64,000 nucleotides of DNA from Bacteroidales bacterium (GCA_965230395.1 CBDDKV010000002.1:1920947-1984946); one strand, 5' to 3'. Positions 5,070 through 63,714 are shown, counted from the first letter of the stretch. Program-made: numbers and translations. Notes: generated from the sequence alone by a model not told the origin.

Positions 5070-6380
5070 CTATTTCTTTATAAGCATTTCACGTGTGGAA
5101 TACCCATTTTGGGTAGTGACCTCAATTATGTAGAGGCCTTTTTTAAGTTTGTTAATATCAATCTCGGCATCCATGTTCCTGTAAATATTGTCCAGGCTAT
5201 TTTCGCAAATCCTTTTGCCATATGGGTCAATAATGGAGTATTTGGCTTTTGTTGGTTCAAAAAGCTCATTGATCGTCAACCGAAATTGCTCATTAGCCGG
5301 ATTTGGAGATAAGCTAAAAGATATTTTTTCAATGTATTCAGGGCAGACAAGTTTAATGTCCCGTTCGTCACAATTATCGGGACCATAGCAACATATTTCC
5401 CTGACATCGAAGTTTGCTGTCGGATCATAATTACAGGCGGCATTGTCCATACATCCCAGCCGGATAGAATCAGAACAGGAGCCATCATCACAAACGGCCT
5501 CAGGGGTGTATTCTGCAAAATAAGGGTCGGTGCAGCCACAAATTAACGGGAAAGAAAGCCATCGGTTATAGTGTTGGTTTTTCTTCGGATCCAGTAAGGT
5601 GTCGGTGGCATAATAATAGTAGGAGGTGTTCTTTCCCCATGCATCAAAATCAGTTAAACTTATTACTTCCAGGTTTAGCTTAAAAGAAAGTTCCCCTTTG
5701 GTGGTTAACTGGGCAACAAGCACCATGTTCTCTTTGTCCTTTCCGCTAACAGCCCCTACCGACGATTCAACTATAATGCCGTCTGTTTTACCGGTTGAAT
5801 CGTTAAAAAGGAACAGGCGGCTTTTTTTATTAGAAGAAAAAGTGCTGTCAGAAATGGTAGAATGAATCCTGTATTTTTCAGCGCTACTGTCAGGTTCTAC
5901 TAAACCATCAGCTATGGATATAGGACGGCCGGCAGATTCGTCTTCATGGGCAAGGAATTCTGAGCTATTGAAAACAGAAGTGTCGGGGTCACTTTCTTTG
6001 GGGATCCCAAGGTGATTTGCGGTTGCAAAACCAATAGATAACCATGAGTCCAGAGCTATAGTTCCATAGGTGAAAAAGAATGGGTTAATTGAACTCCCAT
6101 ATTCATCACCTGAAGGATGGTTGAAAAAACTTTTAGTACTTTGAACGATTACCGGATGGCGAGGATCCCCAATAATTGATTTTAGTGCATACCCTTCTTC
6201 TAAATCAGCGAATACGCGGTAGGTTACAGAGCCTTCTTCGAGGTGGCCTTCAAGTGGATCTAAAGTGTCTTTTTCTCCTGCTACATAATAAGTTTCTACA
6301 AAGAGCCTTTCTAACTGGGCACTAAGCTTTGAACACCAAACTAAAGAGAAGGACAATATAATTAGTATTTTATTTTTCAT
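5070..6380 (-). CDS. T9SS-secreted protein: shared N-terminal module + Cys-rich repeats + Por-type C-terminal sorting domain
   Basis: It has a signal peptide and an N-terminal module paralogous to those in 9739-12744 and 13109-14083 (VTYRVFADLEEGYAL, FFNHPSGDEYG, LVAQLTTKGELSFKLNLEV). Two Cys-rich units follow (GCTDPYFAEYTPEAVCDDGSC, GCMDNAACNYDPTANFD). It ends in a T9SS CTD (LSPNPANEQFRLTI...GLYIIEVTT...MLIKK). Confidence 0.85.
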   Translation of the reverse strand: MKNKILIILSFSLVWCSKLSAQLERLFVETYYVAGEKDTLDPLEGHLEEGSVTYRVFADLEEGYALKSIIGDPRHPVIVQSTKSFFNHPSGDEYGSSINPFFFTYGTIALDSWLSIGFATANHLGIPKESDPDTSVFNSSEFLAHEDESAGRPISIADGLVEPDSSAEKYRIHSTISDSTFSSNKKSRLFLFNDSTGKTDGIIVESSVGAVSGKDKENMVLVAQLTTKGELSFKLNLEVISLTDFDAWGKNTSYYYYATDTLLDPKKNQHYNRWLSFPLICGCTDPYFAEYTPEAVCDDGSCSDSIRLGCMDNAACNYDPTANFDVREICCYGPDNCDERDIKLVCPEYIEKISFSLSPNPANEQFRLTINELFEPTKAKYSIIDPYGKRICENSLDNIYRNMDAEIDINKLKKGLYIIEVTTQNGYSTREMLIKK

Positions 6381-6402: not shown

Positions 6403-9400
6403 TTAAATTTTGTATGATATACTCAGAATATAGCTCGTTCCATAGGAATAGCTGTCAAATGGATAATCATTATAACTTCCTTCATAGTAGTACGCCCTTG
6501 TCGTTGATTCGTTGAGCAGGTTTCTGATTTTAAAATCAATGCTGAAATTATTTCCAACAGACTTTGATGCTTTAAAATCCAGGCGGTGCATCGGAAGCTC
6601 GTAAACATCGGGGACCTCGTCGCTTAATGAAGCAAGGGCAATTTTAGGCCCTTGTACGTTGTAGCTTAATGCCACTGTAATACCAAGCGCCTCGGAAGTG
6701 TAGTCAATCAGGCCATTTATAATGTAAGGGGCCTGGCCAAACATGGCGCGGTCGACTTTATCTGATAAAATTGTGTCATACTGATAAATATTTACGAGCG
6801 TATTTGATTCAACGATGGTTACGTTTGCGCTGATGTTTAAATTCCGGACAATTCTTTTTTTTCCTTCTACTTCAATACCAATGGCTGTTCCCTTGTCTGC
6901 GTTGGACCAGCTGTACAACCCGTTTGTATTGATCATTTCTATATGATCTTTAAAATTTTTGTAGAACAAACTGGCAGAGACGAATTCACCGGAACTGAAA
7001 TAAGACTCTAACCTAAAGTCAAAATTATCGATATGGGAAATTCTTAAATCGGGATTTCCTATCACGTAGGTGCCAAACTCATAGTCGAAGAACCAGAATG
7101 GTGCAACCTCCCTGATACTGGGCCGTGCAATTGTTCTGCTGTAATTTAACCGTGTATTGAAGCTGACATTCTCGCTTGTCAGTAATTTATGTACTAAATT
7201 TATACTTGGAATATAGTCGATGCTGTAAATATTGGTAGGATTGGCCTTGTTCCCTTTTGTTCCCGGAGGGGCCCCGGTTGATGAATTAAATAACCTTTTC
7301 GGATCGTCACGGGGGAGCCCCTGCTCATGGAATTTCTTAATATCGTTGAAAAGGTCGGTGTATTCAACCCTTAACCCACCACAGATTCTGGTTTTTAGTG
7401 TTAAATCATAGTCAGCCATCAGGAACCCTGAAGAAATTTTCGTATGTCCGACGTTAAATAAAATGTCAGAACCTTGCGAAACATAATGTCTGTAAATAAC
7501 CAGGTTGCCAGCCCTGTTTTCTACAATGTTAAACGTAGATTGTCTTATGGGAGCTGATGGATCTTTAACTTTTAAATTATCAAAACCACCAGTATAAACG
7601 TTATAAATGTACTGAGAAGCATCGCGTGTGTTGTTGAAAAATGAACTTCCGAATTTTATTTTTCGCACAAATCCGGCTTTTTTCGTTATGGGTATTTCTC
7701 CGGTTGCGTTTATATCCAGGATATCTTCTTCCAGATACCTATACCTTCTTTGCGGGCTAAAGCCATTGGAATAACCATATAATACAGCTCCGGTTGAATC
7801 TTTTAAGTCAGGATTGGAAGCGTAAGTAAAACTTTTATAGTCCGGAGTGGAACTGCTTCCATCGGTAAAAGAACCTAAAAGTTTAACTTTAAGCCGGGAA
7901 ACGGGAAAGTAATGGCTCGATTGGAACTGGTAGGCGAATTGTTTTCTTTCCTCGTAATGCTGATCATGCTGAAAAGTATAAGCATAACCATATTCCTGCT
8001 CCATGCTAAAGGAGTAGCCCGAATCAAATCGGACTTTGTTTTCACCACTCATGTTTGGCATAAACAGCAGTGAAATGCTATGGTTAGGTGTGATTTTATA
8101 AGCAGCACTTAACAATGCGCTCCATTCATTTGTTTCTGTTGTGTATTGCCTTTGATAGTCGGTATAGTTTTTAAAATATTTCTCGCCCCTGTTGTATGAG
8201 TATGTGAGCTGCTCTGCGTTGGGGTCGCTTTTTGTCGAGCTGGAATAACGGATTCCGGCTAACAGGCCAAGAGGTCTACCGAAAAACATAATCTGATTAC
8301 CTATCGTAATATCTTGGCTGAAAGACAACGGTGCTTGCCTTTTTGTTGTCATCCAGTTATCTGGCAGGGTTTTGCCAAATTCAGAAGTTGGGGTGTTCAT
8401 CTTTGTGAAGGCTTCACGGTATAGTTGTGATTTTGGGTCTTCAATTTGTTGTAAAGCTTCATTAACGGCAGTTTTATCATAAATTTGTCCGGGCGGAAGA
8501 ATTCCTAATTCAACCATTCCCAGCTTCACATAAATATTTTCCAGTGATGGGGTTTCGTTTACGTGTTCGTCAGTAGCCCCCATTGCATTTAAATGCTCTC
8601 TTAGTCCCAGGGCAACAAACTGATCGTAAGCTTTAGGCGAACCAATATATTCTGAATATTTGGAATGATCAATATCCCTGAACCCATCATCGTATCCCAT
8701 CCATTCGGTGGGACTGTGTGCAGAAGAAACCACATCTTTAAAGGTTGTCTGGTCGTTATACCCAAAAGAACTTTTTACATTTAGCATGAACTTTTGTGGA
8801 TAGCTCTTGGTTTCGATAGAAAGGTAAGCCCCGGTCCAGTCACCGGGTAAATCCGGGCTCTGGGTTTTTGTAATCACAATGTTGTCGATTAAACTAGTCG
8901 GAAACATGTCCAACCGAATATTGTTTGTAAGCGGGTCAAGGGTGGGGATCCGGGCCCCGTTTATTGTTGTTTTTACATAGCGGTCAGCCAATCCGCGAAC
9001 TGTGATAAAGCCTTGAACGGTAGATACTCCCGTTACGCGTTTGATAGCGTCTTCTACTTGTGAATCTCCTGTTTTTTTAATCGTTTCTTTTGAAATATAA
9101 TCAATGCTTGTTGCAGATTTGAGCTTGATGGTTTTCATGTAAACGTCATTCTCCCGGTTTGCTTTGCCGATTACAACAGCTTCTTCAATCTGTTCTGAAC
9201 TGGACTGCAGTGTAATGTTTTTTATTATAACCTGATTGTCCTTAATGCTCAGAGGGAACTCTGTTTTCTTGTGGCCAACGTAAGAAATAACAATTGTATG
9301 CGAACCAGAAGGGGGCACTTTGAGTGAATATGCCCCTTCGAAATCTGTAATTGTAGCAACGCTATTATCGGCTTTGAGGACAACGGTGGCCCCGATAAGA

Positions 9401-38252: not shown

Positions 38253-38744
38253 AGTTATAAATATCGTATTGTATATTATTATCTCATTTCTTTATTTCTA
38301 CAAGGTACGGTTTGCAAAGCGTAGCCATAGCTACGGCGAAAAACTTTAACACAGCAGAAAGGAAAAAGAAGGGTGAAATATGAAATGTTATTTTGTGATC
38401 GCACTACTAGAGGGCCTGAGAAAGTATTATAGGGCCTGTAAGCCAAAAGAATACCTTTTTGAAGCACCAGGCAAGAAGTACGGTGCAGAAAGTGTAGCAA
38501 AAATAGTTGTCCGTACAGCGCGTAAAGCAGGGATAACAAAGAAGGTTACCCTCCCCCCCATACCCTGCGGCACAGTTTTACTACACACCTGCTTGAAGCA
38601 GGCGTTAACCTAAGGGGTATTCAAGTACTGCTTGGGCACAATTCAACAAAGGGCAGAGAGATATACACACATGTAGCAAGCCATACAATTCAGAATATAA
38701 TAAGTCCATTGGAATTCTTATATTTGAAAGAAAACAAACAATAA
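38253..38744 (+). pseudogene. tyrosine recombinase relic (5'-truncated, at least two frameshifts), same strand as the cassettes
   Basis: Frame 0 (38277-~38400) reads IISFLYFYKVR...TQQKGKRRVKYEMLF. Frame 1 (~38400-38558) reads [54 protein letters not shown]. Frame 0 from 38559 reads [54 protein letters not shown], with the stop at 38742-38744. This gives box I Arg, KGK, HxLRH, LLGH and the Tyr in YTHV. The second frameshift lies in a C7 run (38553-38559). There is no ORF for an N-terminal domain upstream. Confidence 0.8.
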
Positions 38745-38768: not shown

Positions 38769-38811
38769 AAAATACCATTACCTTTTTTAAAAGTTATGCT
38801 ATTTTGTTGTT
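38769..38811 (+). repeat. attI-like junction motif ending in G|TT
   Basis: AAAATACCATTACCTTTTTTAAAAGTTATGCTATTTTGTTGTT lies immediately 3' of the recombinase relic. Near-identical copies end at 50449, 59332 and 61316. Sequence diverges completely right after the GTT in all four. Confidence 0.65.
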
Positions 38812-38846
38812 AGCATGCATTAGAAAACAGTACCCTCCCTAAATAT

Positions 38847-42330: not shown

Positions 42331-43299
42331 TTATTTTGTTGGTACTACTGACCTGAACTCTGGACTATACAGTACACCTGATTTGGCAATTGCCAAGGAC
42401 TGAGACAAGAGTTTATTGGGCACAGCAATCAGTGCAAGCTTTTTAGGCTTACCTTTATTCACCAGCCTTTCATACAGATCTCTAAATTGTTGATTGCTAT
42501 GGCAAGCAGTAAAGCTGCACATAAATAAGTGATTTCGAATTAAAGGATTACCTCTTTTTGATATTCTGGGTTTTCCCCTTACACTTGTTCCAGATGCCGT
42601 GATGACTGGTGAAAGGCCAAAGAAGGCCGATAGCTGTCCGGAGCTTTCAAATGATTGAAAACCATTGGTACAAACAATGAGCATAATCGCTGTCTTTTTA
42701 CCAATCCCTGGGATTGGTAAAAGATTGGTCAATAGCTCTTTTTCGTGCTCTTTTATTTGCTCTTCCAGCTCCTTTTCAAGTAACTTAATCTCGGAGTTGA
42801 TTTGACGAATTTGGCGTTTTAAAGATGTTATAATCCGTCCTTTGCCCCCTTTGTCAATAAAGCTATGTAGTTTGTTTTTAAGGGCGGTGTTTTGCTTAAA
42901 AAACAAACTTATTGTCGTATGTAAGTCTTTACAGTCATTAATATATTTAGGTAATGGTTTCCATCGGCTAATACTCTGCTCTTGGGCATATTTTACTATC
43001 ATTTTGGCGTCACTTTTATCCGTTTTATTATGCTGTAATTTCATTTGGATAAAGCGTTTAATTACCAATGGATTTATAACAGGGACATTAACCTGGTTCT
43101 CATGAAGGAATACAGCAAGCCGATGATAATAACTTCCGGAGTATTCCATAACACACCAGCTATTTGAATCAATTAGCAATAAGAACTCATAAAATCCATC
43201 TGAGGTATTCTTGAACTTTCTATGTCCCAGCTTAATACTCCAAACATCAAAAACCTTTTTTGAAATGTCAATACCAATAAAATGTGTATTTTTATTCAT
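42331..43299 (-). CDS. IS110-family (DEDD) transposase
   Basis: It reads MNKNTHFIGIDISKKVFDV...MEYSGSYYHRLA (RuvC-like DEDD N-domain) and has a C-terminal Transposase_20-type domain (IPGIGKKTAIMLI...SGTSVRGKPRISKRGNPLIRNHLFMC). The start is set at the ATG at 43299. Confidence 0.9.
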   Translation of the reverse strand: MNKNTHFIGIDISKKVFDVWSIKLGHRKFKNTSDGFYEFLLLIDSNSWCVMEYSGSYYHRLAVFLHENQVNVPVINPLVIKRFIQMKLQHNKTDKSDAKMIVKYAQEQSISRWKPLPKYINDCKDLHTTISLFFKQNTALKNKLHSFIDKGGKGRIITSLKRQIRQINSEIKLLEKELEEQIKEHEKELLTNLLPIPGIGKKTAIMLIVCTNGFQSFESSGQLSAFFGLSPVITASGTSVRGKPRISKRGNPLIRNHLFMCSFTACHSNQQFRDLYERLVNKGKPKKLALIAVPNKLLSQSLAIAKSGVLYSPEFRSVVPTK

Positions 43300-43341
43300 G
43301 ATAATTAATTTGTAAAGAACGATGCTACTTTGATATAGCAA

Positions 43342-44803: not shown

Positions 44804-46533
44804 CACATCCCCCACATCAGGAGCACTTCCAAAATAGATAGAAAATAAAGGTATCTATTTCTCCAGAGCTGATTAAATCCTTAAGCTAACGGGATCGTAC
44901 CTACGATTAAAAGTTCTGCTAAATTTGGGCTGACTCTATGCAAGGCCGATTCTAAAATGGTACTATGCCTTTGGTAAAGTCCGAGCGTCATTCTTGTTGA
45001 AATGTAAAAGCCCCAGAAGTAGTGATTCCGAGGCTTGTTGATAATTCCAGTGGTGGTGTCAAAATTTTGGCAACCCCGTTCATGATAATTCTCAATTCAA
45101 AGATACATTTCCTTAGGGTCATTTTGTAGAACTTTTAAAACAAAAAAATGGCAAAGAAGAAAAAGATGGAAATGGAAGTAATAAACACCAATGCAGCAGG
45201 TATTGATGTTGGAAGCCGTTCGCATTATGTAGCAGTGGGACAATCATTGGAAGATGTGAAAGAATTTGGAGTTTATGCTGAAGGTTTAGTTGAGTTATGT
45301 AAGTGGTTGCTTTCATATGGCATTACATCGGTAGCAATGGAATCTACAGGAGATTATTGGCAAAATCTATATACAGAACTTTTAAAGCATGGTTTGGAGG
45401 TGGCCTTGTGCAATGGCAAGTTCACCAAGCATGCCAAAGGGAAAAAGACAGATGTTAAGGATTGTAGGCATATTCAAAAGCTCCATGCTTTAGGCCTTTT
45501 GGATAGTAGCTTTCTGCCTGATGAGACAACAGAGAAATTGCGGACATATTGCCGTCAAAGAAGTGGCATGATAGACCGTTCAGCCACAGCTTCACGTAAA
45601 ATGCAGAAATACTTGAAATTACTGAATTTTAGATTAGATGTAGTAGTGAAAGATGTATGTGGGCTTACAGGGTTGAAAATAATTGAAGATATATGCAAAG
45701 GTAATTTAGACCCGTATTCATTGGCGGAACATAGGCATTATAATTGCCGCAAGCCTAAAGAAGAAATAGCAAAAGCATTACATGGTAATAATAGGGAAGA
45801 TTTCTTATTTGGATTAAAGCAAGAGTATGAGGCATACCAGTTTTATCAAAAGAAGATAAAATCTTGTGACAAAATGATAGAGCAATTTGTTAAATCGGAG
45901 CTAAAGAAATCGCCAGGGAAACTTAAGCTTAAAACAACAGATAAGCCATATAAAAGAATCAATAAAAATGCCCCGGAAATAAAAAACTTTAACCAGATCG
46001 CATTTCAATATTTCGGGGGTATCGATTTAATGGCAATTGAAGGGGTAAGCCATGGAACAGTTCTGGCAATAATGAGCGAGATAGGACAAAATAGTTTTGA
46101 TAAATTCCCCTCATCAAAAGAATTTGTATCGTGGTTGCGTTTAGCTCCCAACAATAAAATATCGGGTGGAAAAGTATTGAGTAATAGGATACCAAAGGGC
46201 AGTAATAGGTTGAAAATTGCATTAAGGCAAGCAGCAAATGCTATTGGTAATTTGAAAGACACACATTTATCAGATTTTTTTAAACGGGTTGCATTTCGGA
46301 AAGGAAGACAAGCAGCAGTAAGTGCAACTGCACGAAAATTAGGTGTTATAATTTGGACAATGGTAACCAAAAAAGTACCTTACAATCCACCAGCAGAATA
46401 CCTGTTCCTTGACCAAAAAAGGAAGATGGGAATGGCAAAAAGAATAAAGAAACAAATGGCTAAATTTGACATAAAACCAGAAGAAATTGGAATTGGCAAC
46501 TCACTGACACCCAACTACAATTTTTGACGTTAG
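44802..46533 (+). mobile_element. IS110-family insertion sequence #2 inserted at the G|TT core of site S1
   Basis: ACGTTAG occurs at both ends (44795-44801 and 46527-46533). About 345 nt of structured noncoding left end precede the transposase gene, whose stop codon abuts the right-hand ACGTTAG. Confidence 0.8.
45148..46527 (+). CDS. IS110-family (DEDD) transposase
   Basis: It reads AAGIDVGSRSHYVAV...MESTGDYWQNLY (DEDD N-domain) and has the C-terminal IEGVSHGTVLAIMSEIG...SGGKVLSNRIPKGSNRLKIALRQAA. It is only distantly related to the transposase of IS #1. Confidence 0.9.
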   Translation: MAKKKKMEMEVINTNAAGIDVGSRSHYVAVGQSLEDVKEFGVYAEGLVELCKWLLSYGITSVAMESTGDYWQNLYTELLKHGLEVALCNGKFTKHAKGKKTDVKDCRHIQKLHALGLLDSSFLPDETTEKLRTYCRQRSGMIDRSATASRKMQKYLKLLNFRLDVVVKDVCGLTGLKIIEDICKGNLDPYSLAEHRHYNCRKPKEEIAKALHGNNREDFLFGLKQEYEAYQFYQKKIKSCDKMIEQFVKSELKKSPGKLKLKTTDKPYKRINKNAPEIKNFNQIAFQYFGGIDLMAIEGVSHGTVLAIMSEIGQNSFDKFPSSKEFVSWLRLAPNNKISGGKVLSNRIPKGSNRLKIALRQAANAIGNLKDTHLSDFFKRVAFRKGRQAAVSATARKLGVIIWTMVTKKVPYNPPAEYLFLDQKRKMGMAKRIKKQMAKFDIKPEEIGIGNSLTPNYNF

Positions 46534-48288: not shown

Positions 48289-48752
48289 CCCCGCTCGTGA
48301 GGGCTTGTAGCCTTCACGAATAACGAAACAACAAAGAGCCATACTAATAAAGTGAGGCATTTTGGTTTAATAAGGCAACAAACTGGCATATTGTATCTGC
48401 TATTGTTTTGCAAAAACAACAAAATGTGAGGAAAATATTGATTTTATAGTTATAAACATGAGTGGTGCAACCACTCATGAGCGAAGTAACTAAAAGTAGG
48501 AAATTTCTAGTTTTGAAATGTTTTTTATTTAGAATAAGCCTGTCCAGCTTTATAGTCCCCGCTCGTGAGGGCTTGTAGTTTTCACGAATAACGAAACAAC
48601 AAAGAGCCATACCTATAAAATGTGGCTTTGGTTTAATAAGGTAACAAACCGGCAGATTGTATCTGCTATTGTTTTTCAAAAACAACAAAATGCGAGGAAA
48701 ATATTAATTTTATAGTTATAAACATGAGTGGTGCAACCACTCATGAGCGAAG
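48289..48752 (+). repeat. two tandem ~198-bp noncoding units, period 268 bp
   Basis: Units 48289-48486 and 48557-48752 are near-identical. Each starts CGCTCGTGAG and ends CTCATGAGCG (inverted termini). Each contains the hairpins CGTGAGGGC/GCCTTCACG, TTGTTTT..AAAACAA and CATGAGTGG-TGCAA-CCACTCATG. Confidence 0.8.
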
Positions 48753-49967: not shown

Positions 49968-49985
49968 ATAAATAAACAATTGTAG

Positions 49986-50449
49986 CAATAAATAGGACTA
50001 AGAGCGGTCTGCACGTCCCGGTTGAACTGCATCCAGGTTACAACAACCCTATTCGTATTTTACTAAACGATATTGTTGTAGGAAGATTGACCTGGGCAAC
50101 GTAAGTGGGTTGCTGAGTGGAACAGAAACCGGGACTTCAGACTGAAGCATTTCAAAAAGCAGGTTCGAAGCAATACTTTCCGGCCTTATAAACTAACATT
50201 AAACAGGAGTTGCAAAAAAATAACGCAAATAAGGCAGACCGGTTTTGAAGGAAATAAAAAAAACATACATTAGGTACGTTTAATAAAACACAGAAGGCAT
50301 CAACAGCCGATTATGAGCATTTGCCAATTTATTACAAATGCTAAGTGAGCTTATGTGTTAGATTACCATAAGACATTAACAAAATTCTACTTTGAAATGT
50401 ATAGAAGAAATATCATAACCTTTTTTAAAAGTTATGCTATTTTGCTGTT
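49986..50449 (+). repeat. noncoding module A (recombinase-relic-like + attI-like terminus)
   Basis: By eye, about nine in ten positions are identical to 60843-61316 and, over its 3' 347 nt, to 58986-59332. It ends in ...CCTTTTTTAAAAGTTATGCTATTTTGCTG|TTAGGCAC. Confidence 0.85.
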
Positions 50450-50531
50450 AGGCACAAGCGGAGGAGCGACTGTACAAATAATGATTCTAAACCGATAAAA
50501 AAGACAGAATAACATGATAGCCAACGCGCAA

Positions 50532-50591
50532 AGCAAGAGTGTTCAGCCCTTCCCTCAACCGTCCCTTCGCTTCCACACTCTTGCTTTTTTT
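50532..50591 (+). terminator. terminator-like hairpin in the leader of the giant cassette ORF
   Basis: AGCAAGAGTGT (50532-50542) pairs with ACACTCTTGCT (50575-50585) across a 32-nt loop and is followed by T7. It lies 65 nt upstream of the ATG at 50657. Confidence 0.4.
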
Positions 50592-50656
50592 GCCGACGCA
50601 CACGCTTAGGGGATATTGATTTTAGAATTGTCTGAAAAGAAAAAACAAATATTTTT

Positions 50657-53600
50657 ATGGAATCGGACAAAAAATTGCACCCTGATAGAGAAATGAAAAA
50701 TAAAATGGATTTAATATCTCACAAACAAAAGGCAGTAATCCTGATAATAACATTGCTTTTTTCACTCAATTCTTACAGCCAGAAATTAATAGAAAGTCGA
50801 CAAACGAGTTATTACACCTACATTTATAAGATAACTAAAAAGGAAGCTGAAAAGATTTACAAAAAAGATATTTGGAAAGTTGACACCTCCTTTTTTCACA
50901 CATTGGTTGATTCATTTCCAACAGATAGTCAATATTATGGAAGACTTCAACAAGGACACTATTTAAAAACCTTTGCTGAAAAAGAGAAACAAAAACTTTC
51001 AATAACAACTATTCAGGATTTTGATGTTTTTATTTTTAACAACAACACTGATTTATGTGTACAGGTGTTTGATTTAAAAGGAAACCTTATAGAGGATGCT
51101 GAAGTTACTATTCGACTGAAAAACCTTCGTTTCAATAAAAAAACACAGTCCTACCTTGATAAAAAATCAAATCAAAAAGGATTGTTAAAGGTTACATATA
51201 AAGGTTTTACAGCCTATTACAATCTATCCAGACAATATAACAACTCTTTTATTAAGCGAGGAACACGAAAGGTTGTTTATGGAACTCCTATAAAATATGT
51301 TTGGATGCCAGTAAACTTTGTAATATTTCTTCCAATAGATGGAGTAAAATCAATTGTAAAAGGTTGGCCTCAAGGCACTATTTATAGAACCAAGAATTTC
51401 TTTGTTAAGTCCTTCAACAAAATTGCTTGTATGTTCGATGATTACTATTGCGATTATTACACAAATAAAAAATTCAGGAATAAGCATACTGGTTACATGG
51501 TATTCAATAAACCGAAGTACATGCCCGGTGATACGGTGAAATTTAAAGCCTATTTATTAACGAAAAAGGGAAATCCAATAGATGAAAATGTTCATGTTAT
51601 TTTGCAAAACAGCAGAAAAGATATTGAATTAACCGAATTAGCGCCATATAGAAGTGGAGGTTATAATTACGAATTTTATTTGCATGATTCACTTCAGCTA
51701 CAACTTGACCGGAATTATACAATTCGCATAGAACTTAACGATAGAAAAGAATATATAAACGGTTCTTTTAAATATGAAGATTACGAATTATCAAAGAATC
51801 AACTTTCATTGAGAGTTGATAAAAAGGAACATTTTCGAAATAAAAAAATTACTCTTTATGCCAAAGGTACAGATGAAAATGATTTAAACCTGATGGATGC
51901 ACGGATTGAAGTATTATTGACTCCAAAATCAATAAATAAATATTTTGAGAACCATGTGTTCATTCCTGATACTTTACTCTTCCATAAAAAGAAGCTTAAT
52001 CCGACCGATGAAACCGAAATAGTATTATCAGATTCAACGTTTCCTAAAGCAAACTTCGAATATACAATAACTGTTAGGTTGCTAACTTCTGACAATGAAT
52101 CTATTTCCGAAAATGAAGAGATTTCATACTTCTACGAATCAGAAAAATTCGATATTAAAGTAAAAACTGATTCCATCCATTTTGAATATTTAAAAAATGG
52201 CGAAAAAGAATCAAAAGAGGTAACTATAAATTCACAAGACAATTTTGGAAATAAAACTCCAGTTTATAATGGGATTACACCCTGTAGCATCGAATTAAAC
52301 CCTTACTTTTCTTCTTATACAATTCAAACAGATTCAATTTCAGAAACCATAAATATTTCAGAAGAATCATCTTTAATACAATGCTTTTCAGAAAGAACAT
52401 CAGATTCAGTTTACATTGTTGTTAATAATCCTCGTAAGATTCCATTTATCTACAATATTTACAAAAAGAATAGCCAACAAGCATCTGGCTACACCGATTC
52501 TTTGGATATTCGTAAAAAAACATCTTCCAAGCAAAATTATTTTGTGTCAATTCGTTACTTATGGGGCGGTCAAGTTAAGGAAGAAAATTTCAGAATACCT
52601 TTAATTGACAAAAAGCTTAATATTTCCGTTACTCAACCTAAAATTGTTTACCCCGGACAAAAATCAAGAATTGACATTCTGGTTACAGATACCGAAGGAA
52701 AGCCAGTTGAAGGAGTTGATTTAACCGCATTTTCATTAACAAAGAAGTTTGATTATACTGCTCCTGAACTGTCATATCTGGGGAAATCAAAGAAAAACAA
52801 AAGCGTCATAAATAATTTCAATTTTAAAAACTTCAATCTAAATACCCATTCTGGTTTGCAGTTAGACTATGATGCATGGAAAATTATAGCAGGTATTGAT
52901 TCTATTGAATATTATAGATTTATTTATCCGAAAAACTCCATTTATTGTTTTGAATATAAAACAATTGATTCAATAACACAGTTTGCTCCTTTTGTTATTT
53001 CAGATGGTGCAATTCAACCAGTTCATGTTATTTATGTGGATAATAAGCCAGTTTATTTTAGTTGGTCTACAAATACCCGTCCCTATTCATTTAATATTGA
53101 TAGTGGCTATCATCAAATAAAACTCAGAACTAATTTCAGGGAAATTACAATTGACAGTTTGCATTTTGAAGAAGGTAAAAAGTTAATTCTTAGCTTAGAG
53201 CAGGATGCAAAAAATGCTAATATTAAAATAAATAAGGTTGAAGCAAAACTAAGTGATTTTGAAAAACGACTTCTTTATAAATATATCGTTCCTTATAGGG
53301 ATAATTTCGGAGAACAATATGCTTATATAGAACAAAACGAAAATATTCAATTACTTACTCCTGAATCAAAATATCAAAGAAATAACTATGCCGGGCCTCT
53401 GGTTGGTAATTTAACTTTTCAACTTGTAGACAGTTTTTCGACTACAATTAATCATGAACCGTTTTTTGAATATGAGTTTTTACCTGAACTTTTAAAAATG
53501 CGTAGTATTGATTCTAAAAGATTTCCGGAATACTTATATAGCTATAAAGCAAACAATACTTTAAATGATGCTGTGCTAACCAAACAAGTTGTAGAAAAAC

Positions 53601-56600
53601 AATGGAGGGATTATTTAGACTCAAAAAGATATCTTACTGCCAGATACAGATATCCTAATTCTACAAGTCATGGAGCTGGTAAACTATTAATTAATTTTAA
53701 GAGGAATGATGAGCTAATTAAAGATATTCCTTTGAATGTTTTGATTTTTAGATATGATAATCATCAATTTCTGAGAGTTTATCCGGGCAATAGTTCATTT
53801 ATACATGAATTGCAAAAAGGTTATCACAAATTAATATTCTTTTATTTAGGAGCGAAATACCATATTGAAGATTCAATACTTATTCAACCGAATGGATTGA
53901 ACTATTATGAGTTTGAACAACCAGTTTCATATAAGAAAGATACTTTTAGTCTGTACGTAAGCAATGTTATTGAAGAAATGCTTTTCAAACCAAATCCATA
54001 TTATGAAAATGAAGAAAAAGAATTGAAGCAAATTTATAATATGTATCAGCAACAGTTTAAATATACTGGTGTTGGTGATATTGTTGAAGGGTATGTTTAT
54101 GAAGAGGAAGCTGGTGTACCTCTACCTGGTGTTACTGTTCTAATAAAAGGCACAACATATGGAACAGTTACAAATTTAGATGGATATTATTCAATTAAAG
54201 TACCACGCGGAAATAGTGTTTTAGAGTTTTCTTTTATAGGTTATGAAAGTCAAGAAGTAATTGTTAATGGTCAAAATACAATTAATGTTACTTTTACTCC
54301 AGAACTTCTTATGATGCAGGAACTTCAAGAAGTCGTTGTTGTTGGCTATGGAACAACAAGGAGAGCTGATTTAACAGCATCAATTACAACTGTAACTACA
54401 AGTAGTCTATTAGGAGGTATGCCCGGAGTAAGTGGGAATGTTTCGGAAAGTTTGCAAGGGAGAGTTGCTGGTGTTTCTATTTCATCCAATAGCGGAGCTC
54501 CTGGGAGTGGTGTAGAAATAAGAATAAGAGGTGCTTCAACTATTGAGTTTGATAAACCCCCTCTTTATATCATCAATGGAAATGTTTATACTGGAGATAT
54601 TTCTGAGTTAGACCCAGCAATTATTCAAAATATTGAAATTTTAAAAGATGCAAGTGCCACAGCAATTTACGGTTCAAGAGGGGCAAATGGGGTTGTTATA
54701 ATTGAAACGGAAGCTGGAGCTTTTAAAACTACTGAAGCTTCACTTAAAGGTGCTGAATATGATGAGACATTTTTGGAAGCGGCAAGCCAGTCAAGCTCTA
54801 TTCGCGATAATTTTTCAGATTATGCATTTTGGCAACCAAATTTAATAACGGATAAAGAAGGGAAAACAGGATTTGATGTCATTTTCCCCGATGACGTTAC
54901 CAGTTGGGAAACATTCTATTTTGCTATGAATGATAATAGACAGTCTGGACAATCAGAGGGACTTATAAAATCTTATAAACCACTTATGGCTCAACTTGCA
55001 GTTCCCAGATTTTTGGTGCAAAGTGATACTTCATATGCAATTGGTAAAGTTCTAAACTACACTCCCGATTCAGTTAAAGTTGAAACAAAATTTGAAGTTG
55101 ATGGTAAAGAAATGCTAAATACTTCAAGATTTTGTAATAACTCATTGATTGATACGCTATCATTTTTTGCTTCGACTGATTCTGTAGAATTAAAATATTT
55201 TCTTGAGACTAATGACAATTATTTTGATGGTGAACAAAGAAACATTCCCGTTTTTTCAAAAGGACTTGAAACAACTAAAGGTAATTTTTATGTGCTTGAT
55301 AAAGATACAACTATTCAGTTGCGGTTTGATTCTACATTAGGTACTGTAAATCTTTATGCCTGGGCAGATATTCTTGATGTTATTGAAGATGAAATTAGCC
55401 ATTTGATTAAATATAAATATTCTTGTAATGAACAAATTGCATCAAAATTGAAAGCTCTGCTGGCAGAAAAGAATATTGCATATTACAAGGGTGAAAAATT
55501 CAAAAATGATAATGAGGTTGAAAAACTAATCAGGTTATTGAAGAAAAATCAAAAAGATAATGGTTTATGGGGTTGGTGGAAAAATTCAGATGAAAGTTTG
55601 TGGATTAGTTTACACATATTAGAAGCCATTACACATGCTGAACAACTTGGTTATAGAACCTCGATAAATAAAAATCAGATTACGGAATTACTAATATGGG
55701 AGTTAGAAAGTTCTCGTGATTTCTATGAGAAAATACGAATACTAAAAATTCTGAATCTTTTAGGGTCTCAAATAAATAATCAACCCTATATTACTGATTT
55801 GGAAAGAACTAAGAATATTTCATTAAATGGGCTACTTAGTATAATTGAGTTGAAACAACAATGTGGTATTGATTACAATTTAGATACGCTGGATTATTAT
55901 AAAAAAACAACCTTATTTGGAAACACTTACTTTTCAGATGAAACTAAGGCGACTAACTTATTAAATAACGATATTCAAAATTCATTACTTGCATATAAAA
56001 TTATTAAAGCCGATTCAATAACAGATAGTCAAGGATTAAACGAGCTTCAAAATTATTTTCTTGAAAACAGAAAAAATGGATATTGGAGAAACACTTTTGA
56101 ATCAGCCCAAATCATAGAAACAATATTGCCCGATTTATTAAAAGGTCAATCTGAATTAAGTAAACCTGAATTGTCATTAAAAGGCGATATTAACAGGACT
56201 ATTTCTGAATTTCCTTTTGAAATGAATATTAATTCAACTCAAAAGATTGAAGTGTCAAAAACAGGAGACTTTCCAGTTTATTTAACATCCTACCAAAGAT
56301 ATTGGGATAATAATCCAACATTAAAAATGGAGGACTTTGAAATTTCTACAAGTATTAATAATAAAGCAACAACCATTTTAACTGCTGGTCAAGAGACTAA
56401 ACTAATCACAAAAGTAACTGTTAAAAAAGACGCTGAATATGTAATGATAAACATTCCAATTCCTGGAGGCTGTTCGTATACTGATAAGAAGAATAATTTA
56501 CGAAATGAATCACATAGAGAATATTTTAAGAATGAAACAACAATCTTCTGTGATTATTTATCTAAGGGTGAATATACTTTTGAGATTGAATTGATAACTA

Positions 56601-56701
56601 GGTATTCCGGGACATATACAATTAATCCTGCAAAGATTGAGTTAATGTACTTCCCAACTTTTAATGCAAATAATGAGATAAAAACGATTAAGATAAAATG
56701 A
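50657..56701 (+). CDS. giant secreted alpha-2-macroglobulin-like protein with embedded CarboxypepD_reg + TonB-plug segment
   Basis: 2014 aa. A signal peptide follows the alternative ATG at 50693. An MG2-like block is present (KYMPGDTVKFKAYLLTKKGNP). A SusC-type segment spans ~54070-54710 (GVTVLIKGTTYGTVTNLDGYYSIKV; VVVGYGTTRRADLTASITTV; LQGRVAGVSI; IEILKDASATAIYGSRGANGVVIIET). An A2M block follows (FWQPNLITDKEGKTGFDVIFPDDVTSWETFYFAM). The thioester-type motif YKYSCNEQIASKL has its Cys codon at 55424. Confidence 0.85.
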   Translation: MESDKKLHPDREMKNKMDLISHKQKAVILIITLLFSLNSYSQKLIESRQTSYYTYIYKITKKEAEKIYKKDIWKVDTSFFHTLVDSFPTDSQYYGRLQQGHYLKTFAEKEKQKLSITTIQDFDVFIFNNNTDLCVQVFDLKGNLIEDAEVTIRLKNLRFNKKTQSYLDKKSNQKGLLKVTYKGFTAYYNLSRQYNNSFIKRGTRKVVYGTPIKYVWMPVNFVIFLPIDGVKSIVKGWPQGTIYRTKNFFVKSFNKIACMFDDYYCDYYTNKKFRNKHTGYMVFNKPKYMPGDTVKFKAYLLTKKGNPIDENVHVILQNSRKDIELTELAPYRSGGYNYEFYLHDSLQLQLDRNYTIRIELNDRKEYINGSFKYEDYELSKNQLSLRVDKKEHFRNKKITLYAKGTDENDLNLMDARIEVLLTPKSINKYFENHVFIPDTLLFHKKKLNPTDETEIVLSDSTFPKANFEYTITVRLLTSDNESISENEEISYFYESEKFDIKVKTDSIHFEYLKNGEKESKEVTINSQDNFGNKTPVYNGITPCSIELNPYFSSYTIQTDSISETINISEESSLIQCFSERTSDSVYIVVNNPRKIPFIYNIYKKNSQQASGYTDSLDIRKKTSSKQNYFVSIRYLWGGQVKEENFRIPLIDKKLNISVTQPKIVYPGQKSRIDILVTDTEGKPVEGVDLTAFSLTKKFDYTAPELSYLGKSKKNKSVINNFNFKNFNLNTHSGLQLDYDAWKIIAGIDSIEYYRFIYPKNSIYCFEYKTIDSITQFAPFVISDGAIQPVHVIYVDNKPVYFSWSTNTRPYSFNIDSGYHQIKLRTNFREITIDSLHFEEGKKLILSLEQDAKNANIKINKVEAKLSDFEKRLLYKYIVPYRDNFGEQYAYIEQNENIQLLTPESKYQRNNYAGPLVGNLTFQLVDSFSTTINHEPFFEYEFLPELLKMRSIDSKRFPEYLYSYKANNTLNDAVLTKQVVEKQWRDYLDSKRYLTARYRYPNSTSHGAGKLLINFKRNDELIKDIPLNVLIFRYDNHQFLRVYPGNSSFIHELQKGYHKLIFFYLGAKYHIEDSILIQPNGLNYYEFEQPVSYKKDTFSLYVSNVIEEMLFKPNPYYENEEKELKQIYNMYQQQFKYTGVGDIVEGYVYEEEAGVPLPGVTVLIKGTTYGTVTNLDGYYSIKVPRGNSVLEFSFIGYESQEVIVNGQNTINVTFTPELLMMQELQEVVVVGYGTTRRADLTASITTVTTSSLLGGMPGVSGNVSESLQGRVAGVSISSNSGAPGSGVEIRIRGASTIEFDKPPLYIINGNVYTGDISELDPAIIQNIEILKDASATAIYGSRGANGVVIIETEAGAFKTTEASLKGAEYDETFLEAASQSSSIRDNFSDYAFWQPNLITDKEGKTGFDVIFPDDVTSWETFYFAMNDNRQSGQSEGLIKSYKPLMAQLAVPRFLVQSDTSYAIGKVLNYTPDSVKVETKFEVDGKEMLNTSRFCNNSLIDTLSFFASTDSVELKYFLETNDNYFDGEQRNIPVFSKGLETTKGNFYVLDKDTTIQLRFDSTLGTVNLYAWADILDVIEDEISHLIKYKYSCNEQIASKLKALLAEKNIAYYKGEKFKNDNEVEKLIRLLKKNQKDNGLWGWWKNSDESLWISLHILEAITHAEQLGYRTSINKNQITELLIWELESSRDFYEKIRILKILNLLGSQINNQPYITDLERTKNISLNGLLSIIELKQQCGIDYNLDTLDYYKKTTLFGNTYFSDETKATNLLNNDIQNSLLAYKIIKADSITDSQGLNELQNYFLENRKNGYWRNTFESAQIIETILPDLLKGQSELSKPELSLKGDINRTISEFPFEMNINSTQKIEVSKTGDFPVYLTSYQRYWDNNPTLKMEDFEISTSINNKATTILTAGQETKLITKVTVKKDAEYVMINIPIPGGCSYTDKKNNLRNESHREYFKNETTIFCDYLSKGEYTFEIELITRYSGTYTINPAKIELMYFPTFNANNEIKTIKIK

Positions 56702-56866
56702 TTGCAACCCACACCGTCCCTTCGCTGCAAGGCACATTGGCAAAACGCACAAAGCCAACACTTCAACCAAATTTTGCCAAAGAGCCTTTTCGCCCGTCCT
56801 GCTCCAACGCAGGACAGAGAGACAGTGCAAACTTGATAGGTATATTGATTGAGATAATAACCGCCA

Positions 56867-57002
56867 GTGCCTGACAGGCGGTCATAAAACATAGTGCGGA
56901 AAGTGGTATATTTGAGCAACATAACATTTAATCAACGGCAGCAACGGTCTGATAAGTCGGTGCTTCGAAACGCGCTACGTTTCATACCGCCAAACGTAGT
57001 AA
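56867..57002 (+). repeat. attC-like site, long type (S2)
   Basis: The first box GTGCCTGAC pairs with the cassette start GTTAGGCAC (50447-50455) at 8/9 plus one G-T. The arms are GGCGGTCATAAAACATAGTGCG and CGCGCTACGTTTCATACCGCC. The motif TGATAAGTCGGTGCTTCGAAAC is present. The junction G|TAG is at 56996. Confidence 0.75.
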
Positions 57003-57031
57003 CGCATTTTGGCAGACCGTGAAATAATAAA

Positions 57032-58866: not shown

Positions 58867-58872
58867 AACCGC

Positions 58873-58991
58873 ACACCTGATTTGGCAATTGCCAAGGACT
58901 GGGACAAGAGTTTATTGGTCACAGCAATCAGTGCAAGTTTTTTGTCTGAAGCAAAGCGGGTTTAATTCTTTTAGCCAATAAGTCATAAGTG
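58873..58991 (-). mobile_element. internally deleted relic of IS110-family element #1
   Basis: 58873-58943 matches 42373-42443, the transposase 3' coding region that includes the palindrome TTGGCAATTGCCAA. The relic ends in ...CATAAG|TGG, the same terminus and junction as at 43517-43525. It abuts the nitrilase stop codon, so that cassette has no attC-like site. Confidence 0.55.
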
Positions 58992-63545: not shown

Positions 63546-63714
63546 TATTGTATGTAAGTCTTTACAGTCATCGTATTTAAGTAGCGAAAGAGTGGTGGTT
63601 TTCATTGTTGACTAGCTTTATGTATAAATTAATCTTATCCCACCACTCTTCCATTCTTTTAATTTTATTATAAAAACAAGAAATTGCAAACTTAGGAGGT
63701 ATAAAAAACATAAG
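63546..63714 (-). mobile_element. internally deleted relic of IS110-family element #1 that retains the left-end noncoding region
   Basis: 63548-63572 matches 42911-42936, which is internal transposase coding sequence. It is joined directly to a copy of 43370-43522, the whole left-end noncoding region ending ...AAAAAACATAAG. Confidence 0.75.

Follow-up and report, generated by a model that had tools for sequence, protein, structure and literature searches.

A macroglobulin gene with a SusC-type plug module, carried as a 6.5-kb cassette in a Bacteroidales genome

The macroglobulin and its transporter front end

The DNA analyzed here, in the following called the window, is a stretch of 64,000 nucleotides (nt) from an uncultured Bacteroidales bacterium (GCA_965230395.1, CBDDKV010000002.1:1920947-1984946). 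At 50657..56701 on the plus strand it harbors a gene for a protein of 2014 amino acids (aa), denoted as P0001, the sole long open reading frame (ORF) across 49968-57031. P0001 is an intact thioester protein of the alpha-2-macroglobulin (A2M) superfamily equipped with the front end of a SusC-type transporter, and its gene lies in a 6549-nt cassette that recurs, next to different neighbors, in other assemblies.

The domains of P0001 follow each other in the order MG scaffold, SusC-type N-terminal extension (NTE), TonB box, plug, MG7, thioester domain with the motif CNEQ, and bMG10 (Table 1). Pfam recognizes CarbopepD_reg_2 (2e-19), Plug (residues 1238-1346, 3.5e-13), A2M (1.8e-14), and bMG10 (3.3e-15), together with a weak MG2 match in the N-terminal part (279-345). 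The NCBIfam model of SusC/RagA proteins, TIGR04056, is matched only with its positions 3-215 of 981 (E 2e-74), and the SusC signature TIGR04057 is found at residues 1323-1351. No TIGR04056 match in P0001 extends past position 215 into the part that describes the 22-strand barrel (model ~216-981), and a jackhmmer barrel profile also misses the ORF. The SusC front end is thus complete and the barrel absent; the sequence following the plug is MG7/TED.

A profile built from 20 homologues finds SusC/RagA chains of known structure (8aa4_A residues 33-236, E 1e-45). The same profile also matches human A2M 703-804, which we take to be the MG7 domain, the one following the bait, and, around the thioester, ECAM/YfhM 1136-1235. 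The SusC module directly precedes MG7 and ends ~25 residues ahead of the MG7 motif IRDNFSDYAFWQP. Judged by these alignments, the transporter front end sits in the bait position of A2M, and where a flexible, protease-sensitive bait would precede MG7, P0001 has a folded NTE and plug instead.

Structure prediction (AF2) was performed for residues 830-2014 and 41-1150. Since global confidence was low (pLDDT 64-66, pTM 0.39-0.40), the models were read domain by domain only. Individually folded units are the NTE, the plug core, the MG7/CUB region, the helical thioester domain, and the C-terminal MG domain. Disorder is predicted for residues 1218-1271 (TonB box and plug start) and 1359-1440, and no beta-barrel occurs anywhere in the models. 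Foldseek searches with the C-terminal model retrieved A2M, C3/C5, TEP1, CD109, and ECAM at E ~1e-21 to 1e-23, and the N-terminal model consists of beta-sandwich domains with ECAM and Salmonella A2M as best matches (E ~1e-16). Both models thereby display the array of MG beta-sandwiches that marks the A2M superfamily (E 1e-16 to 1e-23).

An earlier note on this DNA, generated without database searches, had described a 2014-aa ORF with an MG-like N-terminus, a CarboxypepD_reg plus plug stretch without barrel at ~54070-54710, and a C-terminal A2M region with CNEQ at 55424. The ORF is intact, and its first ~1100 residues fold as MG-type beta-sandwiches closest to ECAM and Salmonella A2M. Domain searches place the SusC segment at nt ~54083-54745, and its Plug-like nature, on which the fusion reading had been made to depend, is borne out by the TIGR04056 and SusC/RagA chain matches. 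CNEQ corresponds to C1590-Q1593 (nt 55424-55435) in the context YKYSCNEQ. The check proposed for it, conservation of Cys and Gln, had a clear outcome: none of the four residues of CNEQ varies among 30 sequences with identities down to 51%. The motif conforms to the CxEQ pattern of thioester domains, and the surrounding region aligns with ECAM 1136-1235, which points to a thioester domain in P0001.

The segment L-x-E-V-V-V-V-G-Y-G (1223-1232) is similarly constrained, with E1225, V1226, V1228, and G1230 invariant in 20 homologues. In TonB-dependent transporters this segment is the TonB box, and we assign EVVVVGYG accordingly; NTE, TonB box, and plug are then combined as in SusC/RagA transporters. 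All aligned N-termini (19/19) carry a Sec signal peptide of the SPase I type ending in ..S/G-Q^K-L (the caret marks cleavage here and crossover elsewhere), and a lipobox Cys occurs in none of these 19. P0001 is accordingly predicted to be exported, and not as a lipoprotein. Compared with two copies from other assemblies (loci L027 and L012), the gene shows a dN/dS of 0.12-0.15 at a dS of 0.5-0.6. It is hence kept functional by purifying selection, and the copies are old, independent, and functional. In one lineage the SusC module is the faster-evolving part of the protein (omega 0.26-0.33 vs 0.12 for the rest); between window and L012 it is as constrained as the remainder (omega 0.13).

Among 8,000 candidates that were scored, more than 3,300 database proteins of ~2000 aa match P0001. 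Of the 120 matches listed, three fall short of near full length; CarbopepD_reg and A2M are present in all 120, a Plug match in most. Named relatives among the matching carriers include Gaoshiqia sp. Z1-71, Marinilabilia rubra, and Labilibaculum. The source databases name them 'carboxypeptidase-like regulatory domain-containing protein', 'TonB-dependent SusC/RagA ... receptor', or 'alpha-2-macroglobulin'. The architecture had been called odd in the earlier note. This holds insofar as a plug without a barrel does reside in an A2M scaffold, but the design is shared by a conserved family that spans the databases and is not peculiar to this locus. Full-length copies are present in 3/24 other genomes of the same genus (87, 84, and 55% identity), and 3/300 other genomes of a phylum-wide sample match at E <= 1e-100, a lower bound as two candidates per genome were scored. 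The family is accessory and patchily carried.

The genome encodes further macroglobulins of related design. The second one (L023:3358-8100, 1580 aa) is of the eukaryote type and bears CarboxypepD_reg (590-655) and Plug (727-838) between A2M_BRD (464-513) and A2M (899-988). A third one (2125 aa) and a variant from the same genus (1857 aa) have CarbopepD_reg alone at the bait place. With several macroglobulins carrying inserts ahead of the A2M domain, the bait position appears as a recurrent insertion point in Bacteroidota macroglobulins. SusC-type barrels number 29 in the genome, and a plug is missing from a single one, a protein of 967 aa (C2:147423-150326) with the NTE and model positions 210-981. 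It lies 31 nt upstream of the 1580-aa macroglobulin, the pair spanning G000:C2:147423-155100. Barrel-less SusC-type plugs occur twice, both times within macroglobulins. The plug of P0001 is 41-47% identical to those of the ordinary SusC proteins of the genome and 33% identical to that of the barrel-linked macroglobulin.

The cassette and its array

The cassette comprises a start box, a leader, the ORF, a trailer, and an attC-like site termed S2. The first box of S2 (GTGCCTGAC) is complementary to the start box, 6417 nt away, at 8/9 positions, and the 12 kb upstream of S2 contain no other such match. With one mismatch, a 9-mer is by itself not significant (the window has 8, and 8 are expected); what confirms the boundaries is their agreement with other assemblies and with the rule at other genomic sites. 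The right crossover, 56996^56997, reads CCAAACG^TAG as compared with the family consensus CCG^TTR.

In four other assemblies, homology begins precisely at the start box G^TTAGGCAC, beside unrelated upstream DNA where this is assembled, and in three of them (L013, L027, L031) start box and first box are complementary at 9/9 positions. In L027, the upstream DNA is the end of a different attC-like site (..CCACCG^), followed by the start TTAGGCACAAGCG.. and a first box ..CCAGTGCCTAAC; in L031 it is a site of a further attC-like type. L013 has the same start box and the exact inverse box, and L008 (91% identical) shows similarity from the TT of the box, with unrelated DNA upstream and a 3' end that runs to ..CGCCAGTGCCT. 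The same cassette thus stands next to different neighbors in the window, OY782875 (L008/L030), OY759745 (L027/L038), DNTK01000578 (L013/L032), and DUPP01000180 (L031), that is, in at least five arrays.

Two copies are exceptions: L012 (genome G004, 87% identity) keeps part of leader and trailer with both boxes lost, and L028 (72%) has attC-like sites on both sides, with its start box agreeing with the first box at 6/9 positions only, i.e. no match. No cassette frame was found at L033 (80%), L029 (67%), L009 (62%), and L011 (57%). The cassette state is therefore neither universal nor obviously monophyletic.

These results bear on several statements of the earlier note. The cassette it had drawn from G^(50447) to S2 around a single ORF recurs with the same start box and inverse first box in the four other assemblies. 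Coincidental complementarity, named there as a ground for abandoning the cassette, is contradicted by the three 9/9 pairs and by ten exact partners at other sites. The survey of homologues that it had suggested finds close copies in cassettes and those of <=67% identity in ordinary chromosomal contexts. On size, it had called the cassette far larger than typical integron cassettes (~0.5-1 kb); with 6549 nt this is the largest cassette found in the genome, the ten with exact box partners measuring 744-4224 nt.

Table 1. Features of the cassette and of the DNA next to it, with their positions in the window
Feature	Position (nt)	Strand	Basis and remarks
attI-like non-coding module, one of three window copies (~65-97% identical by segment)	50014..50447	+	Ends ...TATGCTATTTTGCTG^ at the crossover; repeat families D1-D3, D5, D8
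Cassette, 6549 nt	50448..56996	+	Homology to L008, L013/L032, L027/L038, L031 from start box to inverse box
Start box G^TTAGGCAC, crossover after G50447	50447..50455	+	9-mer GTTAGGCAC; same in L013, L027, L031; L008 has TTGGGCAC
Leader hairpin GCAAGAGTGT...ACACTCTTGC and T-run; loop motif ACCGTCCCTTCGCT at 50557-50570	50532..50590	+	Read from sequence; kept in L008, L012, L013, L027, L028
Signal peptide, Sec-type	50657..50779	+	h-region A26-L37, likely cleavage SYS^QK, no lipobox Cys; read from sequence
N-terminal MG-domain scaffold, residues ~42-1140	50780..54076	+	AF2 beta-sandwiches; Foldseek best ECAM 5a42, SaA2M 4u4j/4u48
SusC-type NTE (CarbopepD_reg_2), residues 1143-1228	54083..54340	+	Pfam; matches NTE of 6ytc_A, 9hfj_A; AF2 pLDDT 75-85
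TonB-box motif E1225-VVVVGYG-1232	54329..54352	+	Homologue conservation; aligns with LDEVVVVGYG of SusC 8aa4_A
Plug domain, residues 1238-1363	54368..54745	+	Pfam Plug, TIGR04056 to 215, SusC signature; end is where the SusC barrel would begin
A2M/MG7 domain, residues 1390-1478	54824..55090	+	Pfam; profile positions 1364-1465 (of 1998) align with human A2M 703-804
Thioester domain, helical, residues ~1572-1829; CNEQ at 55424-55435	55370..56143	+	AF2 helices pLDDT 80-92; profile positions 1562-1655 align with ECAM/YfhM 1136-1235
bMG10 C-terminal domain, residues 1905-2000	56369..56656	+	Pfam
Trailer: second copy of ACCGTCCCTTCGCT at 56713-56726 and two hairpins	56702..56866	+	Common to L012, L027, L028, L031 and the blaI-blaR1 cassette
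attC-like site S2 (~130 nt): first box GTGCCTGAC 56867-56875, inner GCGGT/ACCGC, TATATTTG box 56907-56914, crossover CCAAACG^	56867..56996	+	25-copy genomic alignment

S2 belongs to a family of ~125-nt attC-like sites with ~25 clustered copies in the genome. They are laid out as a variable stretch of 6-7 nt, AAC, A(C/A), GCGGTCATAAAACATTGCGCGG...TATATTTG...GCGCAACGTTTCATACCGCCATCCG^TT, and variable sequence. The alignment of 25 copies shows conservation of the outer AAC/GTT boxes and of a second stem in addition to the inner GCGGT/ACCGC repeats, and compensatory changes in 7/12 pairs. For 10/25 sites, the upstream DNA contains, at a distance of 744-4224 nt, an exact 9/9 inverse of the first box (GTTxxxxxx), of which ~0.05 would be expected per 12 kb. 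This link between start box and first box is the cassette rule of integrons. The minimum-free-energy fold of S2 pairs both ends, yet at z = -0.5 it is no better than shuffles, so that support for the hairpin comes from the family alignment and not from folding energy. Nearly all 25 copies carry TA(T/A)ATTTG in the column of 56907-56914, pointing at the next cassette. TAnnTTTG is the -7 promoter consensus of Bacteroidetes, and each following cassette may thus be individually promoted, unlike in classical integrons. In the 66 nt before the ATG of P0001, inspection by eye found no native promoter, only a -7 box with one mismatch at the wrong spacing. An Rfam search over 36-64 kb detected no known RNA in leader, trailer, or sites at E <= 0.1.

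The non-coding frame of the cassette is also found around other genes. At G000:C2:~1808700-1811380 (minus strand), another cassette shares the start box, the ~190-nt leader, the ~165-nt trailer, and the first box, corresponding to 50448-50640 and 56702-56875 of the window. Its cargo is a repressor of the BlaI type (122 aa) together with an M56/BlaR1-like protein of 596 aa that includes an FGE-sulfatase domain, so that two cargos share one non-coding frame. Copies of the motif ACCGTCCCTTCGCT lie on both sides of the P0001 ORF, one inside the hairpin loop of the leader and one 12 nt past the stop codon. At the trailer copy, L013 has an additional ORF of 240 aa (~1.2 kb) as an insertion bounded by direct repeats (6300-6317, 7510-7527), and in L008 ~100 nt are missing after the motif. 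A second exchange point, internal to the cassette, may lie here.

Between 45148 and 63530, every large ORF is encoded on the plus strand, the GC content is 0.29-0.35 (genome 0.379), and repeated sites occur in the intergenic DNA. At the head of the array, a C-terminal relic of a XerD-like recombinase (38556-38714) is the only recombinase remnant and is followed by the attI-like motif ..GCTATTTTGTTG^TTAG, which also ends the 350-450-nt module directly upstream of the cassette. The last ~44 nt of this attI-like module likewise follow the recombinase relic (38770-38829) and recur by C-terminal recombinase fragments elsewhere in the genome.

An IntI-type integrase was found nowhere in the whole genome: the best TIGR02249 score is 110 bits at a cut-off of 265, and the matches skip model positions ~180-238. 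A classical integron is thereby ruled out. The best scores against the integron-integrase model came from multi-copy tyrosine recombinases of 267 and 298 aa. At G000:C2:2010600-2013200 and about five similar loci, these are followed by a zinc-finger/Y2 (IS91-type) transposase, and as IS91-type accessory genes they were rejected as recombinases of the array. The earlier note had spoken of integron cassettes, which stands as regards the attC-type sites and the cassette rule but not as regards the type of array, given the lack of an IntI-type integrase and the promoter-like box in the sites.

The rAID-1 type of Bacteroidales array, which has been called 'reminiscent of integrons', offers a better match; its genes, for the most part immunity genes, have ~100-300 codons (Ross et al., 2019, 10.1101/471110; PMC12247911). 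These arrays are headed by a XerD-like recombinase and consist of co-oriented low-GC genes with repeated intergenic motifs (10.1101/471110; PMC12247911). They are defined by a tyrosine recombinase at the 5' end, XerD-like and of >=44% identity to BF9343_RS08045, >=2 co-oriented downstream genes, a GC content <=41%, and intergenic motifs. The present array has the co-oriented genes, the low GC content, and the repeated motifs, and at its head the relic. We class it as integron-like and fitting the rAID-1 description.

Several repeats and insertions were noticed in and around the array. Two IS110-family transposase genes lie at 42331-43341 (minus) and 45148-46527 (plus), and pieces of the first (93-96% identical) persist as relics at 58868-58943 and 63570-63714. 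Within the attI-like module, a 58-nt piece at 50098-50155 (positions 85-142 of repeat R1) has ~17 more genomic copies of 88-98% identity, often in tandem-like clusters (C2:2289-2293 kb), and looks like a separate small repeat family. Between cassette ORFs at 48289-48752, structured non-coding units of ~266 nt (95% identical) stand in tandem, each with the palindrome CATGAGTGGTGCAACCACTCATG.

Proposed function and alternatives

We consider it somewhat probable (about 0.55) that P0001 is a periplasmic thioester trap in which the plug module serves as trigger and the TonB box tethers the protein to TonB. P0001 would then act in the periplasm as a trapping or tagging device. A plug without a barrel could be loosely folded and so constitute a protease-accessible or force-sensitive element, and its cleavage or extraction would release the conformational change of A2M proteins and expose the thioester. 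The invariant TonB box would allow TonB to hold P0001 at the inner-membrane side, in place of the lipid anchor of ECAM-type proteins, and possibly to pull on the plug module. The most likely role would be envelope defense against imported proteases or toxins, because the cassette travels in the kind of array that carries interbacterial immunity genes. In favor of a trigger at this place, the same genome encodes one more A2M protein with CarboxypepD_reg and Plug and a third with CarbopepD_reg alone at the same position.

A number of points weigh against this proposal. Protease trapping, thioester reactivity, and TonB binding are properties that we infer for the family from its sequences. A folded plug is an unusual bait, and a plug seated in a barrel would be just as likely to conserve its TonB box. 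With a pTM of 0.39-0.40, the models give no reliable placement of the plug relative to the MG ring. The neighboring cargo gives weak immunity-type matches only, namely a sub-threshold SUFU match besides Fic and CN_hydrolase (DUF3592 is encoded in the array as well, and most ORFs are without a family), so that a defense role rests on context. As the recombinase is a relic, this copy may no longer be mobile. Finally, distant homologues (62-67% identity, perhaps one at 80%) reside outside cassettes, and the function of the protein is hence not tied to arrays.

The main alternative is that NTE, TonB box, and plug, instead of triggering a trap, might insert from the periplasm into a plug-less SusC barrel, with the body of the protein hanging below a TonB-operated channel. 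This corresponds to the suggestion of the earlier note that the protein may dock onto, or compete at, TonB-dependent receptors. P0001 covers positions 3-215 of the SusC model, and the plug-less barrel covers 210-981. Another plug-bearing A2M gene follows that barrel at 31 nt, the barrel is the sole plug-less one among 29, the only two barrel-less plugs are found in macroglobulins, and the TonB box is invariant. In addition, the FhuA plug and barrel are reported to reassemble when made separately. In this genome, the one plug-less barrel already has a plug-bearing macroglobulin of its own beside it, with which P0001 would have to compete. Against such insertion, neither the P0001 cassette nor the adjacent DNA in the six homologue contexts read holds a barrel gene. 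The genome G018 has a P0001-type gene and no macroglobulin of the barrel-linked type, and the plug of P0001 is closer to ordinary SusC plugs (41-47%) than to the barrel-linked one (33%). We regard a plug acting in trans as unlikely.

In the same six contexts, neither a conserved partner nor a pbpC-like neighbor (transglycosylase/transpeptidase families) was called. ORFs of 89-100 aa that follow the gene in L027 and L028 overlie the trailer and the attC-like site and were rejected as partner genes. An M48 peptidase gene in L028 was set aside too, since it lies beyond the attC-like site and is probably a separate cassette.

Rather doubtful is a pure decoy bait that dispenses with TonB, in which the plug would mimic the periplasmic face of SusC, attacking proteases or toxins would cut or bind it, and the thioester would capture them. 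Its position at the bait, its 41-47% identity to the genome's own SusC front ends, its travel in a defense-type array, and the elevated omega in one lineage (0.26-0.33 vs 0.12), as expected of a target mimic, are all consistent with this. On the other hand, the invariance of the TonB box is more simply explained by TonB binding, and in the pair of window and L012 the module is constrained like the rest (0.13). We know of no toxin that targets SusC plugs from the periplasm.

It is very improbable that P0001 is an ordinary chromosomal gene among repeats whose boxes are complementary by chance: one-mismatch 9-mers are expected ~1.3 times per 12 kb, S2 folds like its shuffles, and distant homologues lie in ordinary contexts, but five assemblies share start and inverse box (9/9 in three) with unrelated upstream DNA where assembled, ten other sites have exact partners at 0.05 expected per 12 kb, the gene is in only 3/24 other genomes of the genus, and a dS of 0.5-0.6 argues against the assemblies being one clone.

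An extension of the trap proposal, which we put forward tentatively and think improbable as a whole, takes P0001 as a portable envelope-immunity device. TonB would pull the TonB box, extract the plug, and thus arm the trap without bait cleavage, or, in a variant, P0001 would provide an alternative plug for the resident plug-less barrel; Bacteroidales would pass the device from one integron-like defense array to another as a single 6.5-kb cassette. If true, gating by force or TonB would be seen for the first time in the complement/A2M superfamily, and rAID-type arrays would have their first defense cargo other than an immunity protein.

The architecture matters beyond this locus. The A2M family is defined by a bait that is cut, and here the place of the bait is taken by the energy-coupling end of an outer-membrane transporter with a strictly conserved TonB box. 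If TonB engages P0001, two of the best-known envelope machineries of Gram-negative bacteria would be linked, and no such link was found described. Family names such as 'SusC/RagA outer membrane receptor' mislead the annotation of the >3,300 matching proteins. Since such arrays collect interbacterial defense genes, the cassette context provides a functional hint that chromosomal copies lack. It also follows that arrays of this type can move a gene of 2014 codons, 7-20 times the usual cargo size. How cassettes are made is an open question for integrons. With cassette-borne and chromosomal relatives and a frame shared with blaI-blaR1, the locus offers a rare handle on cassette making.

Comparison with known systems

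Among bacterial macroglobulins, Escherichia coli ECAM/YfhM and Salmonella SaA2M (5a42, 4ziq, 4u48) resemble P0001 in the MG scaffold, MG7, the CxEQ thioester domain, and the bacterial MG10-type C-terminus. They are periplasmic, as is P0001 by prediction. They differ in having a flexible bait loop, where P0001 has a folded SusC NTE, TonB box, and plug, and the motif CLEQ instead of CNEQ; P0001 is ~400 residues longer. ECAM-type A2Ms are lipoproteins linked to pbpC, whereas P0001 has no lipobox and no pbpC-type neighbor was called in six contexts.

SusC/RagA transporters (8aa4, 6sli, 5t3r) share NTE, TonB box, plug (E 1e-45; 41-47% identity), and the SusC signature with P0001. They additionally possess a 22-strand barrel (model 216-981) and a susD partner. 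P0001 has neither and is thus not a transporter. Complement factors C3/C4/C5 give strong fold matches and, like P0001, have a folded domain at the bait position. In C3, this is the ANA domain, whose removal triggers a conformational change and exposure of the thioester. The inserted ANA domain is unrelated to the SusC module, and the context of P0001 is bacterial with no convertase known.

A parallel in design is the pair of plug-less barrel and macroglobulin in the same genome (C2:147423-155100), in which CarboxypepD_reg and Plug also precede MG7. That macroglobulin (1580 aa) has TED_complement and A2M_recep, is 33% identical over Plug-MG7, and is translationally adjacent to its barrel, while P0001 travels alone. 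A literature search on macroglobulins together with plug, TonB, SusC, or bait found no paper on the plug-in-macroglobulin design, and the pair of plug-less barrel and plug-bearing macroglobulin was not found in print either.

Classical integron cassettes share with the present sites the imperfect inverted repeats with outer AAC...GTT boxes, unequal spacers, and a G^TT crossover. In both, the cassette start is complementary to the cassette's own first box, and the same cassette occurs in different arrays. Classical integrons rely on an IntI integrase, which this genome lacks, and nearly all of the sites found here bear a TAnnTTTG box. rAID-1 arrays agree with the present one in the co-oriented low-GC genes and the repeated intergenic motifs; at the head they have a XerD-like recombinase, of which the present array has a relic of XerD-like type. 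Their cargo is mostly immunity genes of ~100-300 codons; P0001 has 2014 codons and belongs to no known immunity family. The host of the array described here is an uncultured Bacteroidales genus, and related assemblies are labelled as Bacteroidales, Prolixibacteraceae, or Salinivirgaceae metagenome-assembled genomes. The rAID-1 array type is thus already published, and the plug-in-macroglobulin design is visible in databases. New is that this design travels as one very large cassette in defense-type arrays, and that its non-coding frame is reused by other cargo.

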